From Nitrosopumilaceae archaeon (GTDB lineage Archaea > Thermoproteota > Nitrososphaeria > Nitrososphaerales > Nitrosopumilaceae), in assembly GCA_965200155.1 (NCBI GenBank), contig CBDATR010000010.1, positions 160,001 through 224,000 of the forward strand: DNA of 64,000 bases, given 5' to 3'. Positions 1,461-50,670 of this stretch are shown one piece after another (positions within the stretch are counted from its first letter, which is position 1; every line of letters begins with the position of its first letter). The position numbers and the translations under genes are program-made. Below the pieces are notes generated by a model. It was not told where the DNA came from. It ran no database searches and saw only the letters and a list, made by a program, of their open reading frames with translations.

Positions 1461-3205
1461 TTATGAGTTCACGTGTTTTGATCACATAATAAGATAGAAT
1501 GCATCCCAGTTTTTTAATTATAATTGCATTCTGGCAGCAACCTCGTTCATTACAGAAAGGCCCTGAGCCCTCCATGTCTGAACGCATGATACGAATGTGG
1601 ACATGCGGCGCATGGCCCTTTCACCACCCTTTATCTGGCCACTAATCTTGCGGAATACCACTGCGTATCAGAACCGGTTCCACTGCTCCGCTGGATTGTT
1701 GGTGGGCTCCACACTGTCATATTCTAGGAATACGAACATGCCTGGTATGGCCTTATTCAATCCTTTCACCTTCTTTTGCAGTTCAGTATCATCAACATCA
1801 TAATACTGATGCATCTGCTCCTGTCTCAAATGAGTGTCGTAATTGCGCGGACGGCCCGTAGCGATTCACGTGCGCTCCGGATCAAATCGTTGTCAAGTTT
1901 GATCCGGGCGTCCTGATCACCGGGATCGATATAGAATCCTGCATGTAATAAACTGGTATCGCGCAATAAATGCGCCCAACACAACTGGTGCTTCCCACCG
2001 TCATCAAACCGGTAACACACGGCGTACCTGTCTGTGACTATCGCGCCCTGGTAACCGTTCAGGTATTTGTCCACTACATATGAACTCCTACTTTTGTATA
2101 TCATCCACTCTTCGGCCCGCATCCCCCATATCCAACCACGCTTACCCGCCAGTGATATACCAGTTTCGTCCACATGAATGCTGGGTGATTTTATTATATT
2201 CTCATAAATTGTTTCCATAAATGATTCGCATGCATCGGCGGCCCTGGCAATTATGTTGTTTACCGCACCCACCGATATATTCAGGCCGAAGAGATCCCTC
2301 GAAATTACAGGTACGCGTTTTATTGGAATCTTTTCCGCACGCAATGCAGTGATGGCACCGCATAATTGAACCCCAAAACTACCACTCTTTGGGACGCCCG
2401 CTGCTGGGGCCAGTTGTTTTTTGCCGCACATACATGTGGCCATCTCTATCACATGAAGGGTCTCCTCTATTTTGGCTGGTATTAAGTATGAGTTCACGTC
2501 TTCCGGAATCTTATGCACAAATCACATTAACTGTCGCGATCAGTTATGCGTAAATTTAGACACAGGTGAACTCATACGGTATTAATTCCGTTATGTGTCG
2601 TTGTTTCCAACCAATTTTTGTCATTATATTGCCGCACTCACATAGTGGAGTATGCTCAAAGGTGTGATGTACTACTCTGCCGGGGTTGTGGGAACGGGAA
2701 ACCCCCTTGTGTCCCTTTTGAGCGCCAGCCTTTTTGGCTGATTTAGTACTGGCTTCTTTCTGTTGCTTATTATCTCCCTGTTTTCGCTTCTGTTCCTCCT
2801 GTTTTCGCTTCTTGTACTGGAGGGATTGAAGGGATGGTGGCGAGTGAGCATTCTCATAATATTTAAGTCGCGTTGTGAGTACCGCAATTTTCCTGTCTTT
2901 TTCTACTAATTCCTCTATCAATTCACTTACATAATTCCTAATAATTTGGAAATCTTGTGTGAGATTTCGTATTTCTTTTATGGTGTGTGACATATATGCT
3001 TCCAATACTCTCACACGTTCCTTGTAATGTGCAAGATCTTTCTCGGTAGACGCAAGGGTATCCTGAAGAAGTTTATTTTCCAGTTCCAATTCCTTATAGG
3101 ACCGGCGTCTTATCATTAGATTCTTATTGTAAATTTGGTATTTAAGTAAAATATTGTCATACCAATCTATATCTTAGTGAATGATCAAAACACGTGAACT
3201 CATAC
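1461..3205 (-). mobile_element. IS66-family single-ORF element, copy 1; frameshifted and MITE-interrupted
   Basis: 24-bp TIR GTATGAGTTCACGTGTTTTGATCA (first base mutated at 1461); IHVDETG, VTDRY, HQLCWAHLLR, EPTNN motifs. Confidence 0.9.
2486..2577 (-). mobile_element. 92-bp MITE-1 inside IS66 copy 1
   Basis: TSD GGTATTAA. Confidence 0.95.
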
Positions 3206-4703: not shown

Positions 4704-4928
4704 GTATGAGTTCACGTGTTTTGATCACATAATAAGATAGAATGCATCCCAGTTTTTTAATTATAATTGCATTCTGGCAGCAACCTTGTTCATTACAGAA
4801 AGGCCCTGAGCCCGCCATGTCTGAACACATATGGACATGCGGCGCATGGCCCTTTCACCACCCTTTATCTGGCCACTAATCTTGCGGAATACCACTGCGT
4901 ATCGCAGAGCCTGCTACGCTGGATTGTT
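4704..4928 (-). mobile_element. IS66 right-end fragment
   Basis: TIR at 4704; sequence matches ~1461-1700. Confidence 0.85.
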
Positions 4929-5020
4929 GTATGAGTTCACCTGTGTCTAAATTTACGCATAACTGATCGCGATAGTTAATGTGATTTGTGTATAAGATTC
5001 CGGAAGACGTGAACTCATAC
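4929..5020 (+). mobile_element. 92-bp MITE-1 at a rearrangement junction
   Basis: TIRs intact; flanks GGATTGTT/GAATTAAT do not match. Confidence 0.95.
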
Positions 5021-6169
5021 GAATTAATACCAGCCAGAATAGAGGAGACCCTCATGTGATAGAGATGGCCTCCTGCATGTGTGGCAAAAAACAACTGGCC
5101 CCAGCAGCGGGCGTCCCAGAGAGTGGTGGTTTTGAGATGTGGTGCCATCACTGCATTGCGTGCGGAAAAGATTCCAATAAAACGCATACCTGTAATTTCG
5201 AAGGATCTCTTCGGCCTAAATATATCGGTGGGTGCAGTAAACAACATAATTGCCAGGGCCGCCGATGCATGTGAATCATTTATGGAAACAATTCATGAGA
5301 ATATAATAAAATCACCCAGCATTCATGTGGACGAAACTGGTATATCACTGGCGGGTAGGCGTGGCTGGGTATGGGGGATGCGAGCCGAAGAGTGGATGAT
5401 GTCCATATATGACAAAAGTAGGAGTTCAAATGTAGTGAACAAATACCTTAACGGTTACCAGGGAGCGATAGTAACGGACAGGTACGTTGTGTATCGCCGG
5501 TTTGATGACGGTGGGAAGCACCAGTTGTGTTGGGCGCATTTATTGCGCGATACCCAGGCATTACATGCAGGATTCTATATTGATCCCGGTGCTCAGGACG
5601 CCCGGATCAAACTTGACAACGACCTGAAAGGATTGTTCCGGAGCGCACGGGAATCCCTGAATCGCTGCGGGCCGTCCGCGCAATTACGACACTCATTTGA
5701 GACAGGAGCAGAATCCATTCTGCATCAATACTGTGATGTTGATGATGCTGAACTACAAAAGAAGGTAAAAGGATTGAATAAGGCCATACCAGGCATGTTT
5801 GTATTCTTAGAATATGACAGTGTAGAGCCCACCAACAATCCAGCGGAGCAGGCTTTGCGATACGCGGTGGTATTCCGCAAGATTAGTGGTATGAGTTCAC
5901 CTGTGTCTAAATTTACGCATAACTGATCGCGACAGTTAATGTGATTTGTGCATAAGATTCCGGAAGACGTGAACTCATACGATTAGTGGTCAGATAAAGG
6001 GTGGTGAAAGGGCCATGCGCCGCATGTCCACATTCGTATCATGTGTTCAGACATGGAGGGCTCAGGGCCTTTCTGTAATGAACGAGGTTGCTGCCAGAAT
6101 GCAGTTATAATTAAAAAAAACTGGGACGCATTCTATCTTATTATGTGATCAAAACACGTGAACTCATAC
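5021..6169 (+). mobile_element. IS66-family copy 2, 5'-truncated (transposase core 5081-5926)
   Basis: VDETG, TDRY, HQLCWAHLLR, EPTNNPAEQALR; right TIR ends at 6169. Confidence 0.9.
5889..5980 (+). mobile_element. 92-bp MITE-1 inside IS66 copy 2
   Basis: TSD GATTAGTG. Confidence 0.95.
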
Positions 6170-15743: not shown

Positions 15744-15834
15744 TATAGCGGTCACCATAAGTCCTTGGATGACAGATACATTTGTCACATACAATCCCTG
15801 TCTCACATGTCAAAGAATTATGGTGTTTGCTATA
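15744..15834. mobile_element. 91-bp MITE-2, sharing the TIR of the tnpB elements
   Basis: TATAGCGGTCACCATAAGTC ... GAATTATGGTGTTTGCTATA. Confidence 0.8.
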
Positions 15835-20442: not shown

Positions 20443-20524
20443 GTATGAATTTACGCGATATGCCCAAATCACACTAGTCGCCAAGATCTGTTATGCGTAA
20501 ATTTGGACGTAGGCAAACCCGTAC
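20443..20524 (-). mobile_element. Highly diverged MITE-1 relative
   Basis: caaatcacac...gttatgcgtaaatttggac core; decayed TIRs. Confidence 0.55.
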
Positions 20525-20650
20525 AATTTATGGGTATGCTAATTATTTTAATAAAAAGTATTTAGAAGTGTAAAATCATTAATAAACATCTATGGAAATA
20601 GGAAAAAATAGTTTTAAAATACTTAAATTAAAGAGATATATTTACCATAT

Positions 20651-22254: not shown

Positions 22255-23889
22255 GTGAAGTATCCGGATCTTATAAACCCCGAGATGTCATGGATATCCC
22301 GGTCCCAGCAATATAATTTGGACGCGGGCATGCTCATGGCCCACAAGGCAAAGACGTCACTGGGGCCGCGCGGTATGGAAAAGATGTATGTGGACATAAT
22401 AGGGGAGGAGACCGTTACCGCACACGGGGGGGCATTCATGAGAAAGTTTGACGTGGATCATCCCGCGGCCAAGGCTGTGATAGATGGTGTCAATACTGTT
22501 GATACACACGTTGGAGATGGAACTATCTCTGCGGCCATACTTGTAGGAGCACTTTTGGAGCAGGTAGGCGCTCTGCTAAAGTCTGGCATACCAACTGCCA
22601 CCATAATGCGGGGGTTTGAAATTGGTGCGCAGTATGCGCTGGAAACACTGGATTGTATAAGGATCAGGGGTAACTCAAAGACTGATCTGCAGGTAGTATC
22701 CTCGTGCTTGGCGGGAAAGACCATAGCGCTGGCCAATGACAATCTGGCAGAGTGGATAGTAGAAGCGGTGCTGCATGTTGGCGCGGATACGGACATGATA
22801 AAGATAGAGGAGAAGCCAGGGAATTTTACAGATGTACAGTTGATACGGGGAACGGTAATAGACAAACCCGCAGATAACACGCACATGCCCCGGTCTCTCT
22901 TCGACACACAGGTACTGCTACTCAATGATACATTGGAAGCCACACGCACAAGGACCGAGTCTAGCATTGATATATCATCTCCAGAGATGATGGGTGCGTT
23001 CAAGGAGCAAGAGAATTTCAATGTAATGGCCATCGTGGAGAAGGTGGTAAACTCTGGCGCGCAGTTTGTGGTATCAAGAAAGGGCATAGGGGAGATGGCA
23101 CAAGCCGTTCTGGCCCGTATGGGAGTAATGACGGTGCGCCGGGCCAAGTATAATGACTTGTGGTGGTTGGAAAAGGCCACCGGTGCCACCACATGTACTA
23201 GTGTGGAAGACATATCCCCCCACGAGCTCGGGCATGCGGATACTGTACGTCAAGAGATGGTCGGCAGAGACTCAATGATATTTGTCGAGTCCGCAACCCC
23301 CCGTTCGGTTACATTCATGTTGCGCGCTAGCTCCAAGCGCTACCTGGATGAGTTTCACCGTAATGTCCTAAATGCCATAAGATCACTTAGAAACTATAGG
23401 GAGTGTCCCTTTGTGGTGTATGGAGGAGGGGCATGCGAGGCCATACTGGCCCGGCGGATTAGGGAGAGAGCTCCCTACAACCAAGGAAAGATTCCGCTAA
23501 TACTGGGATGCTTTGCTACTGCCTTGGAGGAGATACCCATGACCCTGGCGCGTAATGTGGGAATGGATACCCTTGATGCAATGCCCATGCTACGGCACAA
23601 GTGTGCCACAGAACCTTCAGGATGGTGGGGGGTAGACTCTGCATCCAGGAGCATATGCAGAATACATAATGTAATTGATACATATCTTGTAAAGAAGCAG
23701 ATTATAATCACGGCGCAGGAGACAGCCAATCAAATACTGAATGTGGACGATACATTCATGAAAGACATTATAGACAATACACACTGCCACTTGGATGGGA
23801 CAGTGCACGCCCACAAAGATCCCGGTAGGAACCATAACCATTGGGAGCAAGAGGGACTAGAACAGCGACAGATGCACCAATATTACTAA
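22255..23889 (+). CDS. Divergent thermosome/TCP-1 chaperonin with His-rich tail
   Basis: TSLGPRGMEKM, GDGT, GGGACE. Confidence 0.88.
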   Translation: MKYPDLINPEMSWISRSQQYNLDAGMLMAHKAKTSLGPRGMEKMYVDIIGEETVTAHGGAFMRKFDVDHPAAKAVIDGVNTVDTHVGDGTISAAILVGALLEQVGALLKSGIPTATIMRGFEIGAQYALETLDCIRIRGNSKTDLQVVSSCLAGKTIALANDNLAEWIVEAVLHVGADTDMIKIEEKPGNFTDVQLIRGTVIDKPADNTHMPRSLFDTQVLLLNDTLEATRTRTESSIDISSPEMMGAFKEQENFNVMAIVEKVVNSGAQFVVSRKGIGEMAQAVLARMGVMTVRRAKYNDLWWLEKATGATTCTSVEDISPHELGHADTVRQEMVGRDSMIFVESATPRSVTFMLRASSKRYLDEFHRNVLNAIRSLRNYRECPFVVYGGGACEAILARRIRERAPYNQGKIPLILGCFATALEEIPMTLARNVGMDTLDAMPMLRHKCATEPSGWWGVDSASRSICRIHNVIDTYLVKKQIIITAQETANQILNVDDTFMKDIIDNTHCHLDGTVHAHKDPGRNHNHWEQEGLEQRQMHQYY

Positions 23890-24498
23890 GCGGGATATAC
23901 GATTAACGGACACATTAATCAGAATTAATCCTGTCGGGCGCTAGTTCATGTGTAGATTGGGTCACACTAACTTTAGAACCATTATAGCGGTCACCATAAG
24001 TCTTTGAGAACATGCTACCTCGTTCCTGGACAGTACCTGGCTTTGGCTTGTCACCATTATTTCCGCCCTGGCGCCTCCGGTTGGGCGGGGAACGGTTCCC
24101 CCCGGACGACACGCTCTGCCGCCCCATACAGGGAAACCTGTTACTAAACGCCGCGTTGATATCGACGTGAAATTCCTGGTTGCATATTGAATGTGTCCCT
24201 AGTTGATCGGATTTGTTGTCAACGTGTCCACACACGTGACAGGTCTGGTTCGTTGGGTGGGTAAACCGCCCCCTCATGTATCTCGCTGGCACAGCCGCCA
24301 ATTCAATCCCCGGTGCCTCGCACTTTTGTACTACTTTCCGGCGGAATTCCCCTAAACCCGGTTCTCGCGCATGGAACGGTTCATTGTTCTTTTCCGGTTC
24401 CCGCCATGACTGGTCATTGCTTTCGGTGATAAATCCTCTAGTACTACCTTGTCTGCACCTTTGGTGATCGCGTGGACCGTTCTATTCATGGAGTCGTT

Positions 24499-24590
24499 GT
24501 ATGAGTTCACGTCTTCCGGAATCTTGTGCACAAATCACATTAACTGTCGCGATCAGTTGTGCGTAAATTTAGACACAGGTGAACTCATAC
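24499..24590 (-). mobile_element. 92-bp MITE-1 in tnpB copy A, at a deletion
   Basis: No TSD (GAGTCGTT/CGAATTGA); the RuvC-I region is missing at this point. Confidence 0.93.
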
Positions 24591-25246
24591 CGAATTGACG
24601 CTCCCTGCTCTTGTTAACTCGTTCCACTATCTTGAATGAGCGCATGTCCCGGGAATGATCGATTGGTTTGGTTGCTCTCACCACACCAATGCCCGGCAGG
24701 TATAATTCGTGAGAACCGCGCCTTATCGGCGGACTCACACAAGACAGTATTACACTATTATTGTCACGCCGGTGTGGTATGTAATTAGAATTATCCTCGT
24801 ACGCGCGCCTGCACGCGACAGACACCTGTAGTATTGCATCCCGACCATAGCTGGTAACTCGCGCATCCACTCCAGATCAGGGCGCCACTTTGTCAATTCC
24901 AAGAGCAAACCATTCTTGTTGGACGGGTAAACCGTCCCCGGATAACCGTTCTAGAACGTGGTAGCTGATTCACGTATAATGAATCACCCTTCTTTAGGTC
25001 ATATGGTAACTTGGTGGACTCGTTCTTATTCTTGACCTTGGCCGGATCATGCTTCAATTCAAGAGTGGTTCCGGGTATGTAGTAACCACCAAGACTGATC
25101 TCGGACACCGCTCTATTATAGACATAATCGGATGTGTAACCAAACATCTTTGCGCGCCGGGAGAACTCCTTATCATTTTTCAACGGTATAATGACGGTCT
25201 GAATTATGTCACCCATCATCTGGCGATTCTACTCTAGTAGTTGTTC

Positions 25247-25253
25247 TATAAAA
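25247..25253 (-). promoter_or_regulatory. Putative TATA box of tnpB
   Basis: TTTTATA ending 27 nt upstream of ATG 25219, the spacing of a leaderless archaeal transcript. Confidence 0.5.
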
Positions 25254-25688
25254 CTACGGTCCTATACCCGGTAAAGACTTATGGTGGGCGCTATACAGGA
25301 CCGTGTCGCAGGACAGGGTACGACATACAGATAAGCTAAACCGGGCAGGATCATTGATGCAGTATTGCTCCACTTCAAGACAAACTCAGCAAGGGTTAGC
25401 GTGCCCATTAATCCGGGCATACAAGTTAGTGATTGTGTATGACAAATGTGTGCCCAGAAACTCAGGGTGATCTCTATAGTGTAGACTATACTAATCACTT
25501 GGAGATACCGCCCAAGGCATTTTACAAAAGCCAGTCAGCAAGTGACCCCAAAATGAATGAGGTCCGATGCAAATGACTTGGCGACATAATTTCCGTATGA
25601 TACAGGTGATTAGTGTAAATCTTAATCGGGGTCAACTGGAATGGTTACCTTTCGCGAGATTTTTAAGATATCATACTGTATTACGTAT

Positions 25689-29363: not shown

Positions 29364-30761
29364 TTACTGGCCTTCGTAAATCAGGGTCGAGTTATGAAAC
29401 GTTGCCCATTCAAACCAGAATCCAGGCTCGATTGGTAATCTTATGAGCTGTGTTCCATTGAATATGCCAGAGACAGCAGTGCCATTGTAGTCCCATTCCG
29501 AGCCGGAACCGGTGTCCATTATACTACCGTTCTCGAATCTAAACTCCAGTGTCTGGTTACCTACCGTACGATCAAATGCACGAGCGTTTTCCTGGTACAA
29601 GGAGAGCATGAGTACGTCCCTGGAACCAACTCGGTCATTTATCACAATCTCATTTTCTATATCCGTCTGCCGGTATGCCTTATACACACCATCATACCCC
29701 AACCCCATTATTATCTCCTTTTGGGGTAGTCTTTCATCATGATTGTCTATGGGAAAGTATATTCCCGGTGTGGTATAGTAGTTGCCATACGGGTCTACGC
29801 TGTAGGCGCGCGCATGACCGGTATCGGTGCTGAGTATTAGGGTATCCGGATGAATGCTCTGCCAGTCCGCCCATGTAATAAGATCAAATGGGATGAGACT
29901 CAGTTGTTGGCCGCTCAGAGGACCCCGTACTGCCATCCCCAGTGCTTGGCTCCAGTACGATTCCGTATATCGGTCATACATGAGTAAGTTACTTTGGTAT
30001 AGTAAACCGGAAACACCGAATTCCACGGGTTCATAGTCTATCACCCGACCAAATACCTGGCTAGTATAACATAATGGACAATATGTAACTGCCACGGGGA
30101 TATCCCCAATCTCGTCGTTTACTATCTCATGCCATACCAAGATGATAAGGGGGTACGCCTTTACCTCCCCATCAATGGCCAGTCCCATGACAACATCGGA
30201 TCCTGACATAAAGTCTGCATCTGCCGCAGTCACAAATTTGGGGTTGTCTATAGACGGTATTCCATCTCTGGGTACGCCACCGAATCTGATCTTGTCTAGC
30301 GGAATGGTATGTAACACACCATCTGTATTCATCACGCTAACCCCGCTATCGTATGCCATGACATTATCGTCGTACATAAGGGAGCTATGCGCCTCCACAA
30401 CCACCTCGCCGCTCATCCAGGGATGGACTAGGCAAAAGTACGGGAATGTACCCTCATCATCAAAGGTGTGCGAAAACTCAGTTCCCGGGCTGACAAGACC
30501 GCTGTCAAAGATGCCATCAGGTCCGCCTTCTGCAAGAACTCCGCTGATTATGGTGTGTGCCGCGTTGTCAACGTTGTCCCAGATTACCATATCACCCACG
30601 TTTATGGTGAGCGATGCAGGTACAAAACATTCGTTATTCGCCTCACAACCGGGTGTTGAGGAACCCTCTGCGTTTGAGACGCGGTACTCTTCGGCAAAAG
30701 ATGCAGGCATTACCAAGTAACATGCCACAACAAGTAAAAGCGAGTAAGCATAAAGTTGCAT
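29364..30761 (-). CDS. Plastocyanin-like domain fused to DUF3179
   Basis: AAH...YFCLVHPWM; DGIPSIDNP, WHEIVND, TYCPLC, FGVSG.LY.SNL. Confidence 0.85.
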   Translation of the reverse strand: MQLYAYSLLLVVACYLVMPASFAEEYRVSNAEGSSTPGCEANNECFVPASLTINVGDMVIWDNVDNAAHTIISGVLAEGGPDGIFDSGLVSPGTEFSHTFDDEGTFPYFCLVHPWMSGEVVVEAHSSLMYDDNVMAYDSGVSVMNTDGVLHTIPLDKIRFGGVPRDGIPSIDNPKFVTAADADFMSGSDVVMGLAIDGEVKAYPLIILVWHEIVNDEIGDIPVAVTYCPLCYTSQVFGRVIDYEPVEFGVSGLLYQSNLLMYDRYTESYWSQALGMAVRGPLSGQQLSLIPFDLITWADWQSIHPDTLILSTDTGHARAYSVDPYGNYYTTPGIYFPIDNHDERLPQKEIIMGLGYDGVYKAYRQTDIENEIVINDRVGSRDVLMLSLYQENARAFDRTVGNQTLEFRFENGSIMDTGSGSEWDYNGTAVSGIFNGTQLIRLPIEPGFWFEWATFHNSTLIYEGQ

Positions 30762-30927
30762 TTCTGTACTAACCAGACGGTATTTTATAAGAATATGGCA
30801 GTTTTATTTCTCTTCTTGCACATGTCAAAGGACTAGACTCTGCATCATAACAAACTTGTCTATGCAGTACATCGATGCGTTGTGCAATGTTTATAGCGGT
30901 CACCATAAGTCTTTGAGAACATGCTAC

Positions 30928-31019
30928 GTATGAGTTCACCTGTGTCTAAATTTACGCATAACTGATCGCGACAGTTAATGTGATTTGTGCACAAGATTCC
31001 GGAAGACGTGAACTCATAC
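30928..31019 (+). mobile_element. 92-bp MITE-1
   Basis: TSD CATGCTAC; empty site in copy A. Confidence 0.97.
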
Positions 31020-31507
31020 CATGCTACCTCGTTCCTGGACAGTACCTGGCTTTGGCTTGTCACCATTATTTCCGCCCTGGCGCCTCCGGTTGGGCGGGGA
31101 ACGGTTCCCCCCGGACGACACGCTCTGCCGCCCCATACAGGGAAACCGGTTACTAAACGCCGCGTTGATATCGACGTGAAATTCCTGGTTGCATATTGAA
31201 TGTGTCCCTAGTTGATCGGATTTGTTGTCAACGTGTCCACACACGTGACAGGTCTGGTTCGTTGGGTGGGTAAACCGCCCCCTCATGTATCTCGCTGGCA
31301 CAGCCGCCAATTCAATCCCCGGTGCCTCGCACTTTTGTACTACTTTCCGGCGGAATTCCCCTAAACCCGGTTCTCGCGCATGGAACGGTTCATTGTTCTT
31401 TTCCGGTTCCCGCCATGACTGGTCATTGCTTTCGGTGATAAATCCTCTAGTACTACCTTGTCTGCACCTTTGGTGATCGCGTGGACCGTTCTATTCATGG
31501 AGTCGTT

Positions 31508-31599
31508 GTATGAGTTCACGTCTTCCGGAATCTTGTGCACAAATCACATTAACTGTCGCGATCAGTTGTGCGTAAATTTAGACACAGGTGAACTCATAC
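31508..31599 (-). mobile_element. 92-bp MITE-1, same junctions as 24499
   Basis: No TSD; flanks identical to copy A. Confidence 0.93.
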
Positions 31600-32504
31600 C
31601 GAATTGACGCTCCCTGCTCTTGTTAACTCGTTCCACTATCTTGAATGAGCGCATGTCCCGGGAATGATCGATTGGTTTGGTTGCTCTCACCACACCAATG
31701 CCCGGCAGGTATAATTCGTGAGAACCGCGCCTTATCGGCGGACTCACACAAGACAGTATTACTCTATTATTGTCACGCCGGTGTGGTATGTAATTAGAAT
31801 TATCCTCGTACGCGCGCCTGCACGCGACAGACACCTGTAGTATTGCATCCCGACCATAGCTGGTAACTCGCGCATCCACTCCAGATCAGGGCGCCACTTT
31901 GTCAATTCCAAGAGCAAACCATTCTTGTTGGACGGGTAAACCGTCCCCGGATAACCGTTCTAGAACGTGGTAGCTGATTCACGTATAATGAATCACCCTT
32001 CTTTAGGTCATATGGTAACTTGGTGGACTCGTTCTTATTCTTGACCTTGGCCGGATCATGCTTCAATTCAAGAGTGGTTCCGGGTATGTAGTAACCACCA
32101 AGACTGATCTCGGACACCGCTCTATTATAGACATAATCGGATGTGTAACCAAACATCTTTGCGCGCCGGGAGAACTCCTTATCATTTTTCAACGGTATAA
32201 TGACGGTCTGAATTATGTCACCCATCATCTGGCGATTCTACTCTAGTAGTTGTTCTATAAAACTACGGTCCCATACCCGGTAAAGACTTATGGTGGGCGC
32301 TATACAATACCCTTCTTGCATGCCACAGATTCATGGAACATACTACAGTATAGAAACAACTCATAAGATATTTGGATCTATATCTTTTAGGGCAAGAGAT
32401 ATTGTGCATAGGCGCTCACCAATTTCATGTATAAATCATTGCCAATCGTAGCTATCCGTCGTTCATGAATTAAAATTAAAATAATTTAAAAAATGTTTGA
32501 GCTA

Positions 32505-34025
32505 CTAATCTAGTGAATCAGTAAGACCAGTATATCTTTCGCCAGTGGGAGCCCATTGTCCGTTTTCGGTCTTGTACACTAGGTAATTTCCAAGTGCCAA
32601 GTCGCCCGCTTCATTGAGGGCACCGGCGCCGTTACTCTTCATGTTCTCAGCAACATTATGGATGACTGATTTTATAGCATCTACCTCTGCGCTTTGGGCT
32701 TCTATAATCGAAAGTCCCACTAGCCATACCGCGTCGTATGACGAATACACAAATGTGGATGGTCCTTTAACACCTGTTTCCTGTTCCAAATGCAGCTTTA
32801 GTCTGTAATCATCCCTTGATACGTCAGGTAGATATCCGACCAACTGTACCTGATCAACGAACTCCATGACTATGGAATCATTAATGTCGGGATTACCTAC
32901 AAAGGCCTCTGCCGTATACCACTGGACCATTCTTAGTATATCATAATCATTTGCGGTCTGTATAATGGGTATAGTATTATCAAATTCCACGATGAACACC
33001 GCTACCTTATCTTGCCCATACGCGTCAACGGCTTGCTGCACCTCATTAGCCAAGAAGGCTATCTCTGTAGAGAATTCAGCCTGATCTGGATTGAGTCTGA
33101 CTCCTTCATAACTTGCAAAGCCACGTTCCTCGAAGCTATTCCGTACTCCGTCCACCAAGAAATCACCATATGTGTCACCACGCCATATTGGAACGAATAC
33201 CTCGAATCCATTTGCTTCCATCAGTTTCGCGACTCCCTTGCTCTGAATGCGATCATCGGATACTACCCGGAATAAGTTGTCATCTGCAATCGCCAAGGCG
33301 GGTGATGTTGAGCAGCAACCTACCAGTAGCATGTTGTTTGTATTCGCGTATGGTAATACCTGAGTGACAGCTCCACTGCTTGCAGGCCCTATCACTATAT
33401 CAATGTTTTTTGCGTTTATAGCCTGTATCTTTTCAAAGCTTACAACAGGACTGGTTGTATTGTCCTCTTTGGTATGCGCAAAACTCCATGACTCACCTGT
33501 TGCTTCCAAGTAGTCATTAAAGTCATTAATTGCAAGTTCGGCGGCAGCGTCAATCTGTATTCCTATGGAAGACAAGTCTCCGGTTAACGGGTAAAGGGTA
33601 GCAATGCCAACCTCGCCCTCGACCATCATCATGTCGTCCATCATGGCGCCGTCTGCTGTTACAATTATCTCACCCAACATCCAGGGGTGAACACTACAGA
33701 AGTATGGGAATTTACCCTCCTCATCAAAGGTGTGTGAAAACTCGGTTCCCGGGCTGACAATATCACTGCTAAATACGCCATCAGGTCCGCCTTCTGCAAG
33801 AACTCCGCTTTCTATGAAATGGGCTGCATTATCTGGATTGTCCCAGATTACAGTATCACCCACGTTTATGGTAAGTGAATAGGGAAGAAAACATTCGTTG
33901 TTCGTTTCACATCCAGGTGCTGATGCGCCTTCTGCATTGGAAACTCGATACTCTTCTGCAAATGCTGAAGGCACTACCGCGCCAGCTGCTGTAACGATTA
34001 AAAGGACGTAAATTAAATTTCTCAT
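32505..34025 (-). CDS. Plastocyanin-like domain fused to a branched-chain amino-acid ABC-type substrate-binding domain
   Basis: YFCSVHPWM; PLTGDLS, VIGPASS, STSPAL, YDAVW. Confidence 0.85.
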   Translation of the reverse strand: MRNLIYVLLIVTAAGAVVPSAFAEEYRVSNAEGASAPGCETNNECFLPYSLTINVGDTVIWDNPDNAAHFIESGVLAEGGPDGVFSSDIVSPGTEFSHTFDEEGKFPYFCSVHPWMLGEIIVTADGAMMDDMMMVEGEVGIATLYPLTGDLSSIGIQIDAAAELAINDFNDYLEATGESWSFAHTKEDNTTSPVVSFEKIQAINAKNIDIVIGPASSGAVTQVLPYANTNNMLLVGCCSTSPALAIADDNLFRVVSDDRIQSKGVAKLMEANGFEVFVPIWRGDTYGDFLVDGVRNSFEERGFASYEGVRLNPDQAEFSTEIAFLANEVQQAVDAYGQDKVAVFIVEFDNTIPIIQTANDYDILRMVQWYTAEAFVGNPDINDSIVMEFVDQVQLVGYLPDVSRDDYRLKLHLEQETGVKGPSTFVYSSYDAVWLVGLSIIEAQSAEVDAIKSVIHNVAENMKSNGAGALNEAGDLALGNYLVYKTENGQWAPTGERYTGLTDSLD

Positions 34026-34582: not shown

Positions 34583-34674
34583 GTATGAGTTCACGTATTC
34601 CGGAATCTTATACACAAATCACATTAACTGTCGCGATCAGTTATGCGTAAATTTAGACACAGGTGAACTCATAC
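34583..34674 (-). mobile_element. 92-bp MITE-1
   Basis: TSD TAATTGAC. Confidence 0.95.
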
Positions 34675-34841
34675 TAATTGACAGTAACAGCCCATGTTGC
34701 TTCAAACTGGGGTGTATTTTATTGCACACAATCAGTCAAGCATGAACAAACCAATGTGAGTGACACCAGCCAGCACTAACGTATGCCGTGATTGCAAATG
34801 TCGTGTAGTGGGGCGACCGGATCTTGATTACGTATATCATG

Positions 34842-34933
34842 GTATGAGTTCACATCTTCCGGAATCTTGTGCACAAATCACATTAACTGTCGCGATCAGT
34901 TGTGCGTAAATTTAGACACAGGTGAACTCATAC
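34842..34933 (-). mobile_element. 92-bp MITE-1 with adjacent deletion
   Basis: No TSD; right junction equivalent to that of the 392 copy. Confidence 0.92.
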
Positions 34934-36207: not shown

Positions 36208-36394
36208 CAGTGTTGTTTTAACCTGTAATTATTTTTAATCTTATAGTGGAGTTTATCCAAATAAGCCAACGAATTCACGGAAATGGTGTGGTGTGCACTT
36301 ATCCTTTACCAATGTCAGGCTAGGTGCTATAGCGAACACAATAAGTCTTTGACATACAAGACTAGGATTGTATGTGATAAATGGCAAATTTGTT

Positions 36395-36486
36395 GTATGA
36401 GTTCACGTCTTCCGGAATCTTATGCACAAATCACATTAACTGTCGCGATCAGTTATGCGTAAATTTAGACACAGGTGAACTCATAC
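36395..36486 (-). mobile_element. 92-bp MITE-1
   Basis: TIRs; no TSD. Confidence 0.93.
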
Positions 36487-36868
36487 AATTCTGGAGCGTA
36501 CTCAAGAGGTGGATGGATCACTCCCTACGATATTCGGATATCAATTACCACAAGTAGGCAGTGTATGATTTCAAAGATGGCCATAAGTTCGATTATGATT
36601 TTAACAAATTCTGGAACAGTAAACCAGCTGATGGATTAATGCTGCCAATCACGGAATCAGTACGCAAGGGTGAACCCAGTGATTCAAAAACAGAAAAAAC
36701 GGTTCAAAAAGTGCAGGCGGTGTGGAAAGCACATCCGCATCGGCCAGTATGACACAAAAGGCCAAACTAGGTGACCCACAAAGTAGTTGGTACACCATTT
36801 CATGCCACTCTGATCAGGGAATAAGTGGTGGATTTTTGTGCGTGATCGTTCTGGAGACCCATAGCATA

Positions 36869-36969
36869 GTATGAGTTCACGTCTTCCGGAATCTTATGCA
36901 CAAATCACATTAACTAGAACAACCTGTTCCATCAGTTATGCGTAAATTTAGACACAGGTGAACTCATAC
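36869..36969 (-). mobile_element. 101-bp MITE-1 variant
   Basis: TSD 7/8 (ATAGCATA/ATAACATA); central GTCGCG replaced by AGAACAACCTGTTCC. Confidence 0.9.
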
Positions 36970-37156
36970 ATAACATATGCACAGTCATTATACGCCGCTA
37001 AACTCATCATGAAGTATTCCATGTCCATAAAGTATGGTCGAGTACATTACTTACATCTGCTGATTCAGCCTGTCTGCCATTCCCTGTTGTGATATTTTAT
37101 GGAAAATCACCGCCAAGACTTATGGTGACTGCTATATGGCAGTATAACTGCTGATT

Positions 37157-48413: not shown

Positions 48414-48765
48414 GTATGAGTTCACGTGTTTTGATCACATAATAAGATAGAATGCATCCCAGTTTTTTAATTATAATTGCATGCTGGCAGCAACCTCATT
48501 CATTACAGAAAGGCCCTGAGCCCTCCGTGTCTGAACACATGTGGACATGCGGCGCATGGCCCTTTCACCACTCTTTATCTGACCACTAATCTTACGGAAT
48601 ACCACCGCGTATCAGAACCGGTTCCACTGCTCCGCTGGATTGTTGGTGGGCTCCACACTGTCATATTCTAGGAATACGAACATGCCTGGTATGGCCTTAT
48701 TCAATCCTTTTACCTTCTTTTGCAGTTCAGTATCCTCAACATCATAATACTGATGCATCTGCTCC

Positions 48766-48857
48766 GTGTGAGTTCACCTGTGTCTAAATTTACGCATAAC
48801 TGATCGCGACAGTTAACGTGATTTGTGCATAAGATTCCGGAAGACGTGAACTCATAC
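48766..48857 (+). mobile_element. 92-bp MITE-1
   Basis: TSD TCTGCTCC. Confidence 0.96.
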
Positions 48858-49395
48858 TCTGCTCCTGCCTCAAATGAGTGTCGTAATTGCGCGGACGGCC
48901 CGCAGCGATTCACGTGCGCTCCGGATCAAATCGTTGTCAAGTTTGATCCGGGCGTCATGATCACCGGGATCGATATAGAATCCTGCATGTAATATACTGG
49001 TATCGCGCAATAAATGCGCCCAGATGGTGCTTCCCATCGTCATCAAACCGGTAACACACAACGTACCTGTCTGTGACTATCGCGCCCTGGTAACCGTTCA
49101 GGTATTTGCCCACTACATATGAACTCCTACTTTTGTATATCATCCACTCTTCGGCCCGCATCCCCCATATCCAGCCACGCTTACCCGCCAGTGATATACC
49201 AGTTTCGTCCACATGAATGCTGGGTGATTTTATTATATTCTCATAAATTGTTTCCATAAATGATTCGCATGCATCGGCGGCCCTGGCAATTATGTTGTTC
49301 ACCGCACCCACCGATATATTCAGGCCGAAGAGATCCCTCGAAATTACAGGTATGCGCTTTATTGGAATCTTTTCCGCACGTAATGCAGTGATGGC

Positions 49396-49487
49396 GTATG
49401 AGTTCACGTCTTCCGGAATCTTGTGTACAAATCACATTAACTGTCGCGATCAGTTGTGCGTAAATTTAGACACAGGTGAACTCATAC
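49396..49487 (-). mobile_element. 92-bp MITE-1
   Basis: TSD GTGATGGC. Confidence 0.96.
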
Positions 49488-49864
49488 GTGATGGCACCAC
49501 ATCTCAAAACCACCACTCTCTGGGACGCCCGCTGCTGGGGCTAGTTGTTTTTTGCCGCACTTGCATGCAGCCATTTCTATCACATGAAGGGTCTCCTCTA
49601 TTCTGGCTGGTATTAATTCTGTTATGCGTCGTTGTTTCCAACCACTTTTTGTCATTATATTGCTGCACTCACATTGTGGAGTATGCTCAAAGGTGTGGCG
49701 CATTACTCTGTCGGGGTTGTGGGAACGGGAAACCCCCTTGTGTCCCTTTTGCGCGCCAACCTTTTTGGCTGATTTCGTACTGGCTTCTGTCTGTTGCTTA
49801 TTATCTCCCTGTTTCCGCTTCTTGTACTGGAGGGATTGAAGGGATGGTGGCGAGTGAGCATTCT

Positions 49865-49956
49865 GTATGAGTTCACGTCTTCCGGAATATTATGCACAAA
49901 TCACATTAACTGTCGCAATCAGTTATGCGTAAATTTAGACACAGGTGAACTCATAC
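49865..49956 (-). mobile_element. 92-bp MITE-1
   Basis: TSD AGCATTCT. Confidence 0.96.
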
Positions 49957-50129
49957 AGCATTCTCATAATGTTTAAGTCGCGTTGTGATTACCGCAATTT
50001 TCCCCTGTTTTTCTTTTAATTTCTCATTCAATTCATTTACATAATTCCTAATAATTTGGAAATCTTGTGTGAGATTTCGTATTTCTTTTGTGGTGCGGGA
50101 CACATATGCTTCCAATACTCTCACACGTT

Positions 50130-50309
50130 CCTTGTAATGTGCAAGATCTTTCTCGGTGGCCGCAAGACGTAGGACAAGGCGCATCTTGCCCATGGCCTCT
50201 GCCTTGTAATGTGCAAGTTCTTTCTCGGTAGCCGCAAGTATTATGTCTCCACGTTTTATCTCTCGCTCATTCTCCTTTAATGTGCAAGTTCTTTCTTGGT
50301 AGACGCAAG
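50130..50309. repeat. Three 36-37-bp direct repeats with 35-bp unique intervals, in the IS66 transposase N-terminus
   Basis: Units at 50130, 50202 and 50274 encode LAATEKxLAHYK. Confidence 0.85.
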
Positions 50310-50670
50310 GGTATCCTGAAGAAGCTTATTTTTTAGTTCCAATTCCTTATAGGACCGGCGCCTTCTCATTAGATTCTTATTGCAAATTTGATATTTAAGC
50401 AAAATATTGTCATACCAATCTATATCTTAGTGAATGATCAAAACACGTGAACTCATACGCATAAATTATAGTCATACGTAAATAAGTATGAATTTAATTA
50501 GTGCTTAATTTTTATTAATAATTATTTCATGACAATAATTTACCTTAATTTACACATGACAAATTGTGAGGATTATTTCTTATGCGACAATACGATTTTC
50601 GAGTGCGCGATTAGAAACCGTGAATTTATCGAGGCACAGATATATGAAGGCAAATTATGCAAAAAATACA

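Follow-up and report, generated by a model that had tools for sequence, protein, structure and literature searches.

The two tnpB loci in the window, by which we mean the whole 64,000-nt stretch of DNA analysed here (contig CBDATR010000010.1, 160,001-224,000), are probably decayed copies of a ~1.47-kb non-autonomous IS630-type cut-and-paste element that carried tnpB as its only cargo, was moved in trans and, when intact, may have homed by means of its nuclease. TnpB, in use as a genome-editing tool, is the protein from which Cas12 descends; what it does in nature has been established for IS200/IS605 elements, whose excision leaves no scar. What the window holds is dead copies of a known arrangement; the wider family amounts to a natural experiment, in which one nuclease clade resides in two sets of DDE ends. 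Coordinates below are those of the window unless a label precedes them; labels beginning with C, G or L denote contigs, genomes and loci.

Two dead tnpB elements and their reading frames

23983-25295, minus strand: copy A (1313 bp) of family T1, the non-autonomous element with tnpB; intergenic, between a thermosome gene (ends at 23889) and an ORF from 25880
25273-25295, minus strand: copy A end upstream of tnpB (left in the tnpB sense), TATAGCGCCCACCATAAGTCTTT when read from outside
25246-25253, minus strand: TATA-like box TTTTATAG, ~27-30 nt 5' of the ATG at 25219
24893-25219, minus strand: N-terminal tnpB fragment, a 108-aa ORF with YVYNRAV, aligning with residues 1-51 of an intact relative
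24553-24870, minus strand: middle tnpB fragment in other frames, aligning with residues 85-191 of the intact relative
24499-24590, no strand assigned: 92-bp MITE in copy A, ends GTATGAGTTCAC...GTGAACTCATAC, occupying the place of residues ~192-289 (RuvC-I region)
24352-24531, minus strand: tnpB fragment with the RuvC-II motif VVLEDL
23915-24301, minus strand: tnpB fragment with the zinc-ribbon CHVC (TCHVCG) and RuvC-III DINAA, PF07282 E 2e-4, under the cut-off
23983-24005, plus strand: copy A end downstream of tnpB (right in the tnpB sense), TATAGCGGTCACCATAAGTCTTT when read from outside; expected start of the omegaRNA guide
30892-32304, minus strand: copy B of the same element (T1), 1413 bp, intergenic (the genes on either side end at 30761 and 32505)
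30892-30914 and 32282-32304: inverted ends of copy B
31508-31599, no strand assigned: 92-bp MITE in copy B, the same insertion as in copy A
30928-31019, no strand assigned: second 92-bp MITE, inverted, in copy B only, with the 8-bp duplication CATGCTAC at 30920-30927 and 31020-31027

The inverted repeat is 23 bp long and imperfect (TATAGCGGTCACCATAAGTCTTT / AAAGACTTATGGTGGGCGCTATA, 21/23 complementary), with TA at its outer edges, and is present in both copies, just as the earlier note had read it. End to end, the two copies are 99.8% identical and have a MITE, a deletion and frameshifts in common; comparison of their flanks confirmed that these are unrelated. The claim of an exact match from TIR to TIR did not survive, in that copy B equals copy A plus three substitutions (24139, 24754 and 25263) and a 100-bp insert, which consists of the 92-bp MITE at 30928-31019 and the 8-bp duplication. 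The other 92-bp MITE, common to both copies, had been overlooked.

By its motifs and homology, the cargo gene is a TnpB, of the RNA-guided nuclease family. YVYNRAV, VVLEDL, TCHVCG and DINAA, the motifs first noticed in the letters, were all found in the minus-strand ORF fragments. The fragment at 23915-24301, whose open frame extends through the inverted end into the flank, matches PF07282 (Cas12f1-like_TNB), though short of the curated cut-off. The 333-aa L010, a longer copy from the family, exceeds that cut-off for the same model (E 1e-8) and has matches under the cut-off to PF01385 (OrfB_IS605; E 8e-6) and to the NCBIfam model guided_TnpB (E 1e-14). An intact relative (450 aa, at L045:1481-2833 on the minus strand) aligns with the solved TnpB chain 8iaz_A (E 4e-11), with GVDVG, IVVES, CxxC...CxxC and HADVNAA in register. 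This relative has all three members of the RuvC D-E-D triad; in the window copies VVLEDL and DINAA are kept, the GVDVG segment is gone and the triad is incomplete.

In both copies the shared MITE (24499-24590 / 31508-31599) takes the place of some 98 missing codons, those of the RuvC-I region among them, and the frame has several breaks. Both copies are dead, in agreement with their first description as pseudogenes. The ~170-nt 3' tail of that description turned out, on alignment to the intact relative, to be mostly frameshifted C-terminal TnpB coding sequence. Its TATA box fared better: the TATA-like sequence is present and kept in 12/14 aligned family copies (read by eye), and it may function as a promoter.

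The earlier note spoke of two transposed copies. There are indeed two near-identical copies, but transposition does not follow from this, as gene conversion would look alike. Copies A and B may descend from old T1 insertions that occurred independently, 5.6 kb from each other and with matching orientation, and conversion may since have homogenised them by carrying MITE, deletion and frameshifts from one copy into the other, an account we take seriously while leaning somewhat away from it. Their identity breaks off precisely where the homologous segment ends, a limit that conversion would likewise produce; other T1 copies are 8-20% diverged, the assembly contains no intact transposase with these ends, and both dead copies adjoin TG, as old insertions by live elements would. 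On the other hand, the identity continues up to the last bases, including an A-for-G variant just inside the upstream repeat that occurs at only these 2/26 ends, and movement in trans is routine for dead non-autonomous elements. The arguments are decisive on neither side.

Ends in common with an IS630-type element

T1 is represented in its own genome by 124 BLAST pieces. At least 17 copies in the assembly have both ends; upstream family ends number 26 and downstream ones 23, and the inverted repeat is present at every one of these ends genome-wide (26/26 and 23/23). A genome-wide search for intact tnpB copies, suggested at the outset, returned none, every two-ended copy being broken; likewise, the majority consensus of 14 family copies has no open frame. 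The frame changes differ copy by copy, and the decay was therefore mostly independent. A metagenome scan for close intact T1 relatives gave 32 loci, all of them distant, with ≤53% identity over short pieces. When a 22-nt end pattern was searched with up to 3 mismatches, 104 matches were obtained in this genome versus 0 for the reversed control, which puts the repeat far above chance, and only 2 of 300 other genomes of the family matched, once each.

T1 has its 23-bp ends, with an identical outer boundary, in common with E2 (a decayed IS630-type DDE element), E3 (a second tnpB family) and MITE M. The following lie in the window:

36328-37136, no strand assigned: E2 remnant, ends 36328-36350 and 37114-37136, with a DDE-region piece (tblastn match C10:196444-196635)
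15744-15834, no strand assigned: MITE of ~90 bp (family M) with the same inverted ends

A DDE element with this TIR had been predicted in the earlier note, and E2 is such an element, though its matches are sub-threshold and frameshifted. The motifs DESH...DMAH...PYLNPVEEFW are readable in one example (G000:C13:13691-15735). Two frame pieces match DDE_3 at E 1.5e-3 and 4e-3, under the cut-off, and two collinear, sub-threshold matches were seen to NCBIfam transpos_IS630 (E 3e-3 for profile positions 125-213, E 1.3e-5 for 238-296). An IS630-type transposase that is intact aligns with the E2 pieces at the motifs DESH and P(Y/F)LNP(V/A)E. In the 5-6 E2 copies with a DDE region, one frameshift is common to all, and stops are present as well. 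No intact transposase with these ends was found in the assembly (87.6% complete), where all IS630 matches fall below curated cut-offs. Nor does the tnpB element contain a DDE_3-type transposase; it is non-autonomous, which supports the initial view of a unit bounded by inverted ends and without a transposase of its own. Two candidate partners were rejected: an IS66-like gene near C43:108300-110360, which is part of a separate element with long ends of its own, and the IS630-type transposase of G005, the ends of which differ and which has no tblastn match in this genome.

Evidence for insertion at TA comes chiefly from the sibling elements. Filled sites of MITE M read CTCACA-TA..TA-TGCCC and empty paralogous sites CTCACA-TA-TGCCC, so that the expected empty sites with a single TA do exist for this MITE, for which alone TA duplication is shown. 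At the points where E2 has inserted into T1 copies, uninterrupted copies read TA. Nested insertions in general are rampant in this genome. In the tnpB elements, too, both edges read TA; a search for clean empty sites of these elements found none. Searches for paralogous empty sites with the T1 flanks gave self matches only. For orthologous empty sites, the relatives within the genus (66-70% nucleotide identity in the thermosome gene) proved too distant and lack synteny. In contigs of four sequencing runs (X1, X3, X8 and X6), flanks were joined to the copy A ends and none skipped the element; the joints listed in these contigs came from repeats. Two further comparisons involve diverged paralogues: a related element termed E4 (C43:100739-101705), set against its C22 paralogue, shows no TA at a junction where the left homology is only 9 nt, and E3, set against its C9 paralogue, shows GT.

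The reported lack of a tnpA was confirmed. Y1_Tnp (PF01797) gave 0 matches in the assembly (87.6% complete) and was found in 0/10 genomes of the genus, though TnpB relatives are present in 9/10. Resolvase (PF00239, serine TnpA) likewise gave 0 matches in the assembly and was found in 1/10 genus genomes (G001). Given the lack of Y1 and serine TnpA, and given ends that are common to a DDE element, a TA-duplicating MITE and a second tnpB family, the likeliest identity of T1 is a non-autonomous IS630-type transposon that carries tnpB as cargo, and we infer that it was mobilised in trans.

A one-sided flank motif and its possible origin

Beside the upstream end of T1, the flank reads (A)TTG. Position -1 is G at 23 of the 26 upstream ends; T occupies -2 at 17 and -3 at 16 of them, and A occupies -4 at 10, while TG and TTG are seen in 16/26 and 9/26, respectively. 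The remaining ends that carry this repeat show G at -1 in 16/80 (Fisher P = 5e-10 versus 23/26). The corresponding flanks in the window are:

25296-25299, minus strand: flank abutting the copy A upstream end, CCTG in the tnpB sense, where the family as a whole has its TAM-like (A)TTG motif
32305-32308, minus strand: flank abutting the copy B upstream end, ATTG in the tnpB sense

The second tnpB family, E3, has AC next to its upstream end in 5/5 cases, and elements with the same ends and either no cargo or another cargo are without the motif.

Intact relatives of the same TnpB clade occur in two sister genomes, G005 and G006, where they have IS1595-type ends and 8-bp duplications, with the stop codon lying inside the inverted end. 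Of 19 two-ended copies, 15 have a duplication matching at ≥7/8 positions, and G directly precedes the duplication in 14 of these 15, compared to 1/6 for non-T elements with the same IS1595-type ends (read by eye). The motif reads ATTG before TA in this genome and A-T-N-G before T-W-A in the sister genomes. In G005, IS1595-type ends are used by three tnpB families, and in G006 the clade keeps them at only 56-58% protein identity. In this genome, IS1595-type ends gave 50 matches and 7 pairs, none with tnpB; of the pairs, six are short and MITE-like (150-253 bp), and the seventh, 3144 bp long, bears an IS1595 transposase. The flank motif thus appears to go with the nuclease clade and not with the transposase type, and (A)TTG looks like a TAM that accompanies this nuclease in both transposase systems.

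How such a pattern could arise may be pictured as follows. An IS630/Tc1-type DDE transposase from a family in the same genome would bind the 23-bp ends in trans, excise the element, insert it at TA and duplicate the TA. An intact tnpB would be read from the TATA-like box just inside the upstream end, and the omegaRNA would overlap the 3' end of tnpB and the downstream inverted end, with the flank beyond supplying the guide. The nuclease would go on to recognise its own site free of the element, namely (A)TTG, then TA, then the right flank. Cutting of this element-free site would be followed by repair from a filled copy, and such homing would keep or spread insertions that adjoin the motif. Motif, duplication and right flank together make up the element-free allele, to which the guide RNA of the element itself would correspond; the pattern would accordingly be a footprint of restorative homing. 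We propose, tentatively and with doubt slightly outweighing belief, that the nuclease and not the transposase decides which DDE insertions persist, the flank motif being a trace of RNA-guided restorative homing by tnpB modules that swap end sets. Copies A and B are nuclease-dead, yet TG is found at both flanks; this fits selection by the nuclease only if the sites were occupied before the decay, as under gene conversion, or else arose by chance (~1 in 16). With respect to the putative omegaRNA, an Rfam search gave 0 matches, folds of the end regions were no better than shuffles (z-scores of -1.1 and +0.1), and alifold on 15 related ends predicted 72 pairs, 4 of them with compensatory change. 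The intact multi-copy relatives in G005 and G006, together with a nuclease-specific motif, make the homing idea directly testable.

It is also conceivable that a tnpB element landed by chance in an IS630-derived MITE and was carried passively, with no tie between nuclease and DDE transposase and some other meaning for the flank motif. MITEs with these ends do exist, insertions are often nested here, and no copy in this genome has a live nuclease. We consider such nesting unlikely, however, as there is no room for internal IS605/IS607 ends: the upstream repeat lies ~53 nt from the ATG, TnpB homology reaches residue 429/450 of the intact relative, ~43 nt short of the element end, and in the sister genomes even the stop codon falls within the end. 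Two tnpB families use the 23-bp ends in this genome; three use IS1595-type ends in G005, and the clade retains these in G006 despite its divergence. The association of the motif with nuclease clade, not transposase type, also argues against passive carriage. The earlier note had named, as the pattern that would count against its proposal, intact homologues that stop at IS605/IS607 ends and mostly occur without the TIRs; what we found is that all family ends carry the repeat and that the relatives end in inverted repeats with 8-bp duplications.

Single-strand peel-and-paste makes no target duplications. This weighs on a last reading, very improbable in our estimation, in which T1 is an ordinary IS200/IS605-type (IS1341-group) solo tnpB with its Y1 TnpA elsewhere, (A)TTG is the TnpA target and the IS630 likeness of the ends is incidental: perfect target duplications of 8 bp flank the intact relatives that are closest, Y1_Tnp is missing from the assembly and from all 10 genus genomes, the same 23 bp stand inverted at both ends with the outer boundary seen in the DDE-bearing element and the TA-duplicating MITE, and no hairpin was noticed on reading the element ends. 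To its credit are the one-sided, family-specific motif of 3-4 nt at the left end, a hallmark of IS200/IS605 elements (family knowledge; a passage of PMC13565253), the one paralogue comparison without TA at the empty junction, and the hairpin-like palindromic ends (read by eye) of another G005 TnpB family (~435 aa).

Relation to described systems

The placement of tnpB within IS630 ends was itself already described in 2023. Passages of Altae-Tran et al. (2023; PMC10691335) report DDE-linked prokaryotic TnpBs with inverted ends, an IS630-linked branch among them, and solo TnpBs with the same ends, and hence carriage in TIR transposons is not, as had been suggested, characteristic of Fanzors. In the IS630-linked 'DDE-6' branch, as in T1, a prokaryotic tnpB lies between symmetrical inverted DDE (IS630-family) ends; the same passages place the tnpB 3' end <250 bp from the transposon end and presume solo copies to be trans-mobilised, again as seen or proposed here. 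They differ in that the IS630 transposase and an HTH protein occur there together with TnpB, whereas here these are separate elements that share only ends. Furthermore, the host here is an archaeon of the Nitrosopumilaceae and all copies are decayed, and the likeness drawn here is one of arrangement. A one-sided flank motif is not mentioned in those passages.

The IS1341 group (tnpB-only IS200/IS605) resembles T1 in that a solo tnpB of ~1.3-1.5 kb fills the element, with a fixed motif on the left and a variable flank on the other side. T1 is unlike this group in having 23-bp TIRs instead of subterminal hairpins, in the lack of a Y1 TnpA in the genome and genus, and in having relatives with 8-bp duplications.

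Fanzor1 of Tc1/mariner and other eukaryotic DDE transposons is a TnpB-family cargo in a TA-duplicating TIR transposon, as T1 probably was, and its proposed geometry also puts the duplication between TAM and guide region. Here, in contrast, the host is prokaryotic and the protein matches bacterial and archaeal TnpB models, the likeness drawn here being one of organisation. Passages of a 2026 review (PMC13565253) say that the 5' duplication of Fanzors forms part of the TAM, and treat as a puzzle why DDE transposons keep such a nuclease. If the motif described above is a TAM, it would be sequence-level evidence for restorative homing in the service of prokaryotic DDE transposons, as is assumed for eukaryotic Fanzors.

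Finally, T1 is similar to IS630-family MITEs and other non-autonomous derivatives in that it uses a partner's ends, has no transposase, occurs in tens of copies and probably targets TA. It is unlike them in carrying a full-length protein-coding cargo with a promoter-like box of its own.

Two decayed tnpB elements

Two copies of a tnpB-bearing element, family T1, lie in the window:

Copy A: 23983-25295, tnpB on the minus strand, 1313 bp
Copy B: 30892-32304, tnpB on the minus strand, 1413 bp

As an earlier note on this DNA had described, imperfect 23-bp inverted repeats with TA at the outer edges delimit each copy, and the flanks are unrelated. One end reads TATAGCGGTCACCATAAGTCTTT and the other is nearly its complement (21/23). 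Both insertions are intergenic: copy A has a thermosome gene on one side and an unassigned ORF on the other, and copy B is flanked by genes of the DUF3179/plastocyanin and periplasmic-binding/plastocyanin types. These two minus-strand neighbours of copy B, at 29364-30761 and 32505-34025, share a 300-nt direct repeat of 76% identity (30369-30668 and 33633-33932); it corresponds to their N-terminal parts, where Pfam places a plastocyanin-type copper-binding domain. Copies A and B had been taken to match exactly. In fact, they differ by 3 substitutions, and copy B alone contains an additional 92-bp MITE (30928-31019) with an 8-bp duplication, CATGCTAC.

The TnpB motifs quoted in the earlier note are present in tnpB fragments on the minus strand of the element. 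Alignment to an intact 450-aa relative recovers residues 1-51, 85-191 and 290-429 in three different frames, while both copies lack residues ~192-289 and with them the RuvC-I aspartate region. Another copy of the 92-bp MITE occupies the place of the missing region (24499-24590 in A, 31508-31599 in B). Given these losses and the three frames, both copies are dead, and their designation as pseudogenes holds. Most of what was read as a ~170-nt 3' tail, supposedly non-coding, is frameshifted sequence encoding the TnpB C-terminus. A TATA-like element, TTTTATAG, lies 27-30 nt ahead of the tnpB ATG and, read by eye, is kept in 12/14 aligned family copies. The coding region also contains two copies of a GC-rich palindrome of 22 nt, GGGGGCGGTTTACCCACCCAAC when read in tnpB sense (24252-24273, 24918-24939), and a related stretch at about 24080-24100. 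Compared with the intact relative, the palindrome appears as an 8-codon insert. It has 34-55 matches genome-wide, depending on the sub-pattern, and may be a tiny mobile hairpin repeat.

In the source assembly (2.38 Mb, 51 contigs, 87.6% complete), where the window spans C10:160001-224000, the T1 element is represented by 124 BLAST pieces, with 17 copies retaining both ends; 26 upstream and 23 downstream ends (relative to tnpB sense) could be classified. tnpB is open in no T1 copy of this genome, where at most 333 aa run without a stop, and the majority consensus is not open either. Frame changes vary between copies, indicating that decay was mostly independent and that the ancestor was probably intact. 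Both Pfam and NCBIfam assign the T1 protein to TnpB, and when the intact relative is aligned with a solved TnpB chain, its D, E, zinc-ribbon and D motifs fall in register. The reported lack of tnpA was borne out, as neither Y1 TnpA nor a serine recombinase was found in the 87.6% complete assembly. Among 10 genomes of the genus, TnpB relatives are present in nine, a serine recombinase in one and Y1 TnpA in none.

Ends shared with an IS630-type family

The 23-bp end occurs 144 times in the source genome at up to 5 mismatches. It is common to several distinct element families, and the outer boundary is always identical.

Element families with 23-bp ends in the source genome
T1: tnpB family of the window
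E3: second decayed tnpB family, 1.1-1.3 kb
M: MITE, ~90 bp
E2: ~2-kb family, two-ended copy C13:13691-15735; remnant in the window at 36328-37136

E2 supplies, in part, the DDE transposase with the same TIR that the earlier note had proposed to look for: the family bears matching ends, but its IS630-type matches are decayed and fall below cut-off. Its frames match IS630-type models only (DDE_3 and NCBIfam transpos_IS630), with two pieces matching in collinear order, under the curated cut-offs. The motifs QDESHF, LFVDMAH and YPVGHPYLNPVEEFW can be read by eye, and the pieces align with an intact IS630-type transposase of a sister genome at QDESHF and YPVGHPYLNPVEEFW. No intact transposase with 23-bp ends was found in the assembly. 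All 5-6 E2 copies holding the DDE region share a frameshift and stops. The common frame change, between the second D and E (C43:18160-18718, C31:33460-34018, C13:14782-15340, C10:396621-397177 and C23:24327-24778), may have been inherited as a defect or may reflect programmed frameshifting.

Filled sites of MITE M have two TAs and empty paralogous sites have one, which indicates TA duplication. Where E2 has inserted within T1 copies, the corresponding positions of uninterrupted copies read TA. The empty single-TA sites that the earlier note had proposed to look for exist for M, but no clean empty site was found for T1 itself. Two comparisons of E3 and a related element, E4, with diverged paralogues revealed no TA, and contigs of four sequencing runs contain the copy A site in the filled state only. 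At up to 3 mismatches, the end pattern has 104 matches in the source genome and one in each of two others (G001, G006), and is absent from the remaining 298 of 301 genomes of the family. On these sequence comparisons, T1 is best read as a non-autonomous element of IS630 type that carries tnpB as cargo and is mobilised in trans. With the corrections above, the original observation is real and its core interpretation is supported, although it is not new in kind.

A flank motif and relatives with IS1595-type ends

In tnpB sense, the T1 upstream flank ends in G in 23/26 cases, TG in 16/26, TTG in 9/26 and ATTG in 7/26. At the comparison ends, namely the downstream T1 flank and either side of E2 and M, G is found in only 16/80 (Fisher p 5e-10). 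For E3, the upstream flank ends in AC in 5/5. Because elements with the same ends and no tnpB lack the motif, the transposase cannot explain it. Its side and strand are those of the TnpB-recognised motif (TAM) in IS200/IS605 elements. TG also adjoins copies A and B, although the nuclease of each is dead; either these sites were filled before decay, with later gene conversion, or a dead copy came to lie there by chance (about 1 in 16), or a nuclease supplied in trans was at work.

The search for intact tnpB came up empty in the source genome but yielded open copies of the same clade in a complete sister genome, G005, where other ends bound them. This genome has 15 two-ended copies of the 450-aa TnpB, all but one matched as open frames in the genus search (copy 530419-531633 has a TAG). 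The clade has the YVYNRAV motif in common with the window and 35-60% identity to the window fragments. Inverted repeats of 14 bp, GGGAATTATATACA, form the ends of every copy, most copies have perfect 8-bp duplications, and this end pattern has 101 matches versus 8 in the control. In a second sister genome, G006, copies with such ends encode proteins of 56-58% identity. At L069-L079 of G005, these IS1595-type ends (GGGAATTATATAC..) bound three TnpB families (450, 445 and 470 aa), a 115-bp MITE, and 2.7-2.8-kb elements encoding an IS1595-family transposase (Pfam DDE_Tnp_IS1595, E 1e-40) and DNA methylases, one of which (at L070) has an HNH domain. Hence, one nuclease clade appears as cargo of IS630-type ends in the source genome and of IS1595-type ends in its sisters.

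Pooling G005 and G006, 15/19 two-ended copies have duplications matching at 7 or more of 8 positions. The base immediately before the upstream duplication is G in 14/15, T occurs at -11 in 10/15 and A at -12 in 10/15, and the duplication begins with T in 12/15. Other elements with these ends, read by eye, have G at that position in 1/6. The resulting A-T-N-G|T-W-A matches ATTG|TA of the source genome. Since the motif follows the nuclease clade over two transposase systems that are unrelated and duplicate 2 bp and 8 bp, respectively, it is best explained as the nuclease's candidate TAM.

The source genome has an open IS1595-family transposase gene (C7:12645-13571) 64% identical to that of G005, and 50 IS1595-type end matches. 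None of the 7 pairs found encloses a tnpB; six are MITE-like (150-253 bp) and one is a transposase-bearing element of 3144 bp. In G005, two identical 1639-bp tnpB elements (L071 and L072; C1:1455264-1456902 and 2049469-2051107) have swapped flanks: TAATTTCC stands to the left of one and to the right of the other. This suggests recombination between the two, with inversion of about 0.6 Mb. A further G005 TnpB family (L142-L151; about 435 aa, at least 10 open copies) is without IS1595-type ends. Its palindromic, hairpin-like ends resemble those of IS200/IS605, yet Y1 TnpA was found in none of the 10 genus genomes.

Proposed mechanism and other mobile elements

T1 has its ends in common with a DDE family, its siblings insert at TA and duplicate it, the ends delimit the mobile unit, and a nuclease-linked flank motif exists. 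We propose that an IS630-type transposase, acting in trans, would cut and paste the element. An intact tnpB would be expressed from the box within the upstream end, and the omegaRNA would terminate in the flank past the downstream end. An allele without the element, in which the motif is followed by the duplication and the right flank, would be the target of the copy's own guide. TnpB would cut this allele and repair from the filled copy would restore the element, so that insertions adjoining the motif would persist. The putative omegaRNA has no Rfam match, folds no better than shuffles and shows weak covariation. Such restorative-homing logic has been described for IS200/IS605 elements (10.1101/2023.03.14.532601) and has been discussed for DDE transposons (PMC13565253).

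The earlier note had regarded TIR-bounded tnpB as a Fanzor trait. However, Altae-Tran et al. (2023, PMC10691335) describe six DDE-associated prokaryotic TnpB branches with inverted terminal repeats, one linked to IS630-family transposases, and solo TnpBs with nearly identical ends, presumably mobilised in trans; a 2026 review (PMC13565253) names ISL2, IS630 and IS1031 as DDE partners. The window arrangement is therefore known in kind, and here dead. Full-text literature searches returned no paper linking TnpB to IS1595 and none on a flank motif specific to the nuclease in DDE elements of prokaryotes, although the supplementary lists of the 2023 paper may contain such cases. The interest is at the level of the family, where a single nuclease clade is combined with two DDE end sets and one flank motif, rather than in the inert window copies. 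This pattern is testable with intact relatives.

Two further element types recur in the window.

Other mobile elements in the window
92-bp MITE (12-bp ends, GTATGAGTTCAC): 24499-24590, 30928-31019, 31508-31599, 34583-34674, 34837-34933; diverged, 20459-20529
~2.05-kb element: about 1521-3116, 4764-6107, 48474-50369

BLAST gives roughly 450-560 matches per position of the 92-bp MITE over the 2.4-Mb genome, and its 8-bp duplication is visible at copy B. The ends of the MITE match the start of IS66-like elements of this genome, of which it is probably a non-autonomous derivative. The ~2.05-kb element, which we take from a motif to be IS66-like, is exemplified by C43:108306-110360, a copy whose two ORFs encode 256 and 242 aa; the terminal inverted repeats measure about 285 bp. 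Dozens of copies are present in the source genome, many with open frames.
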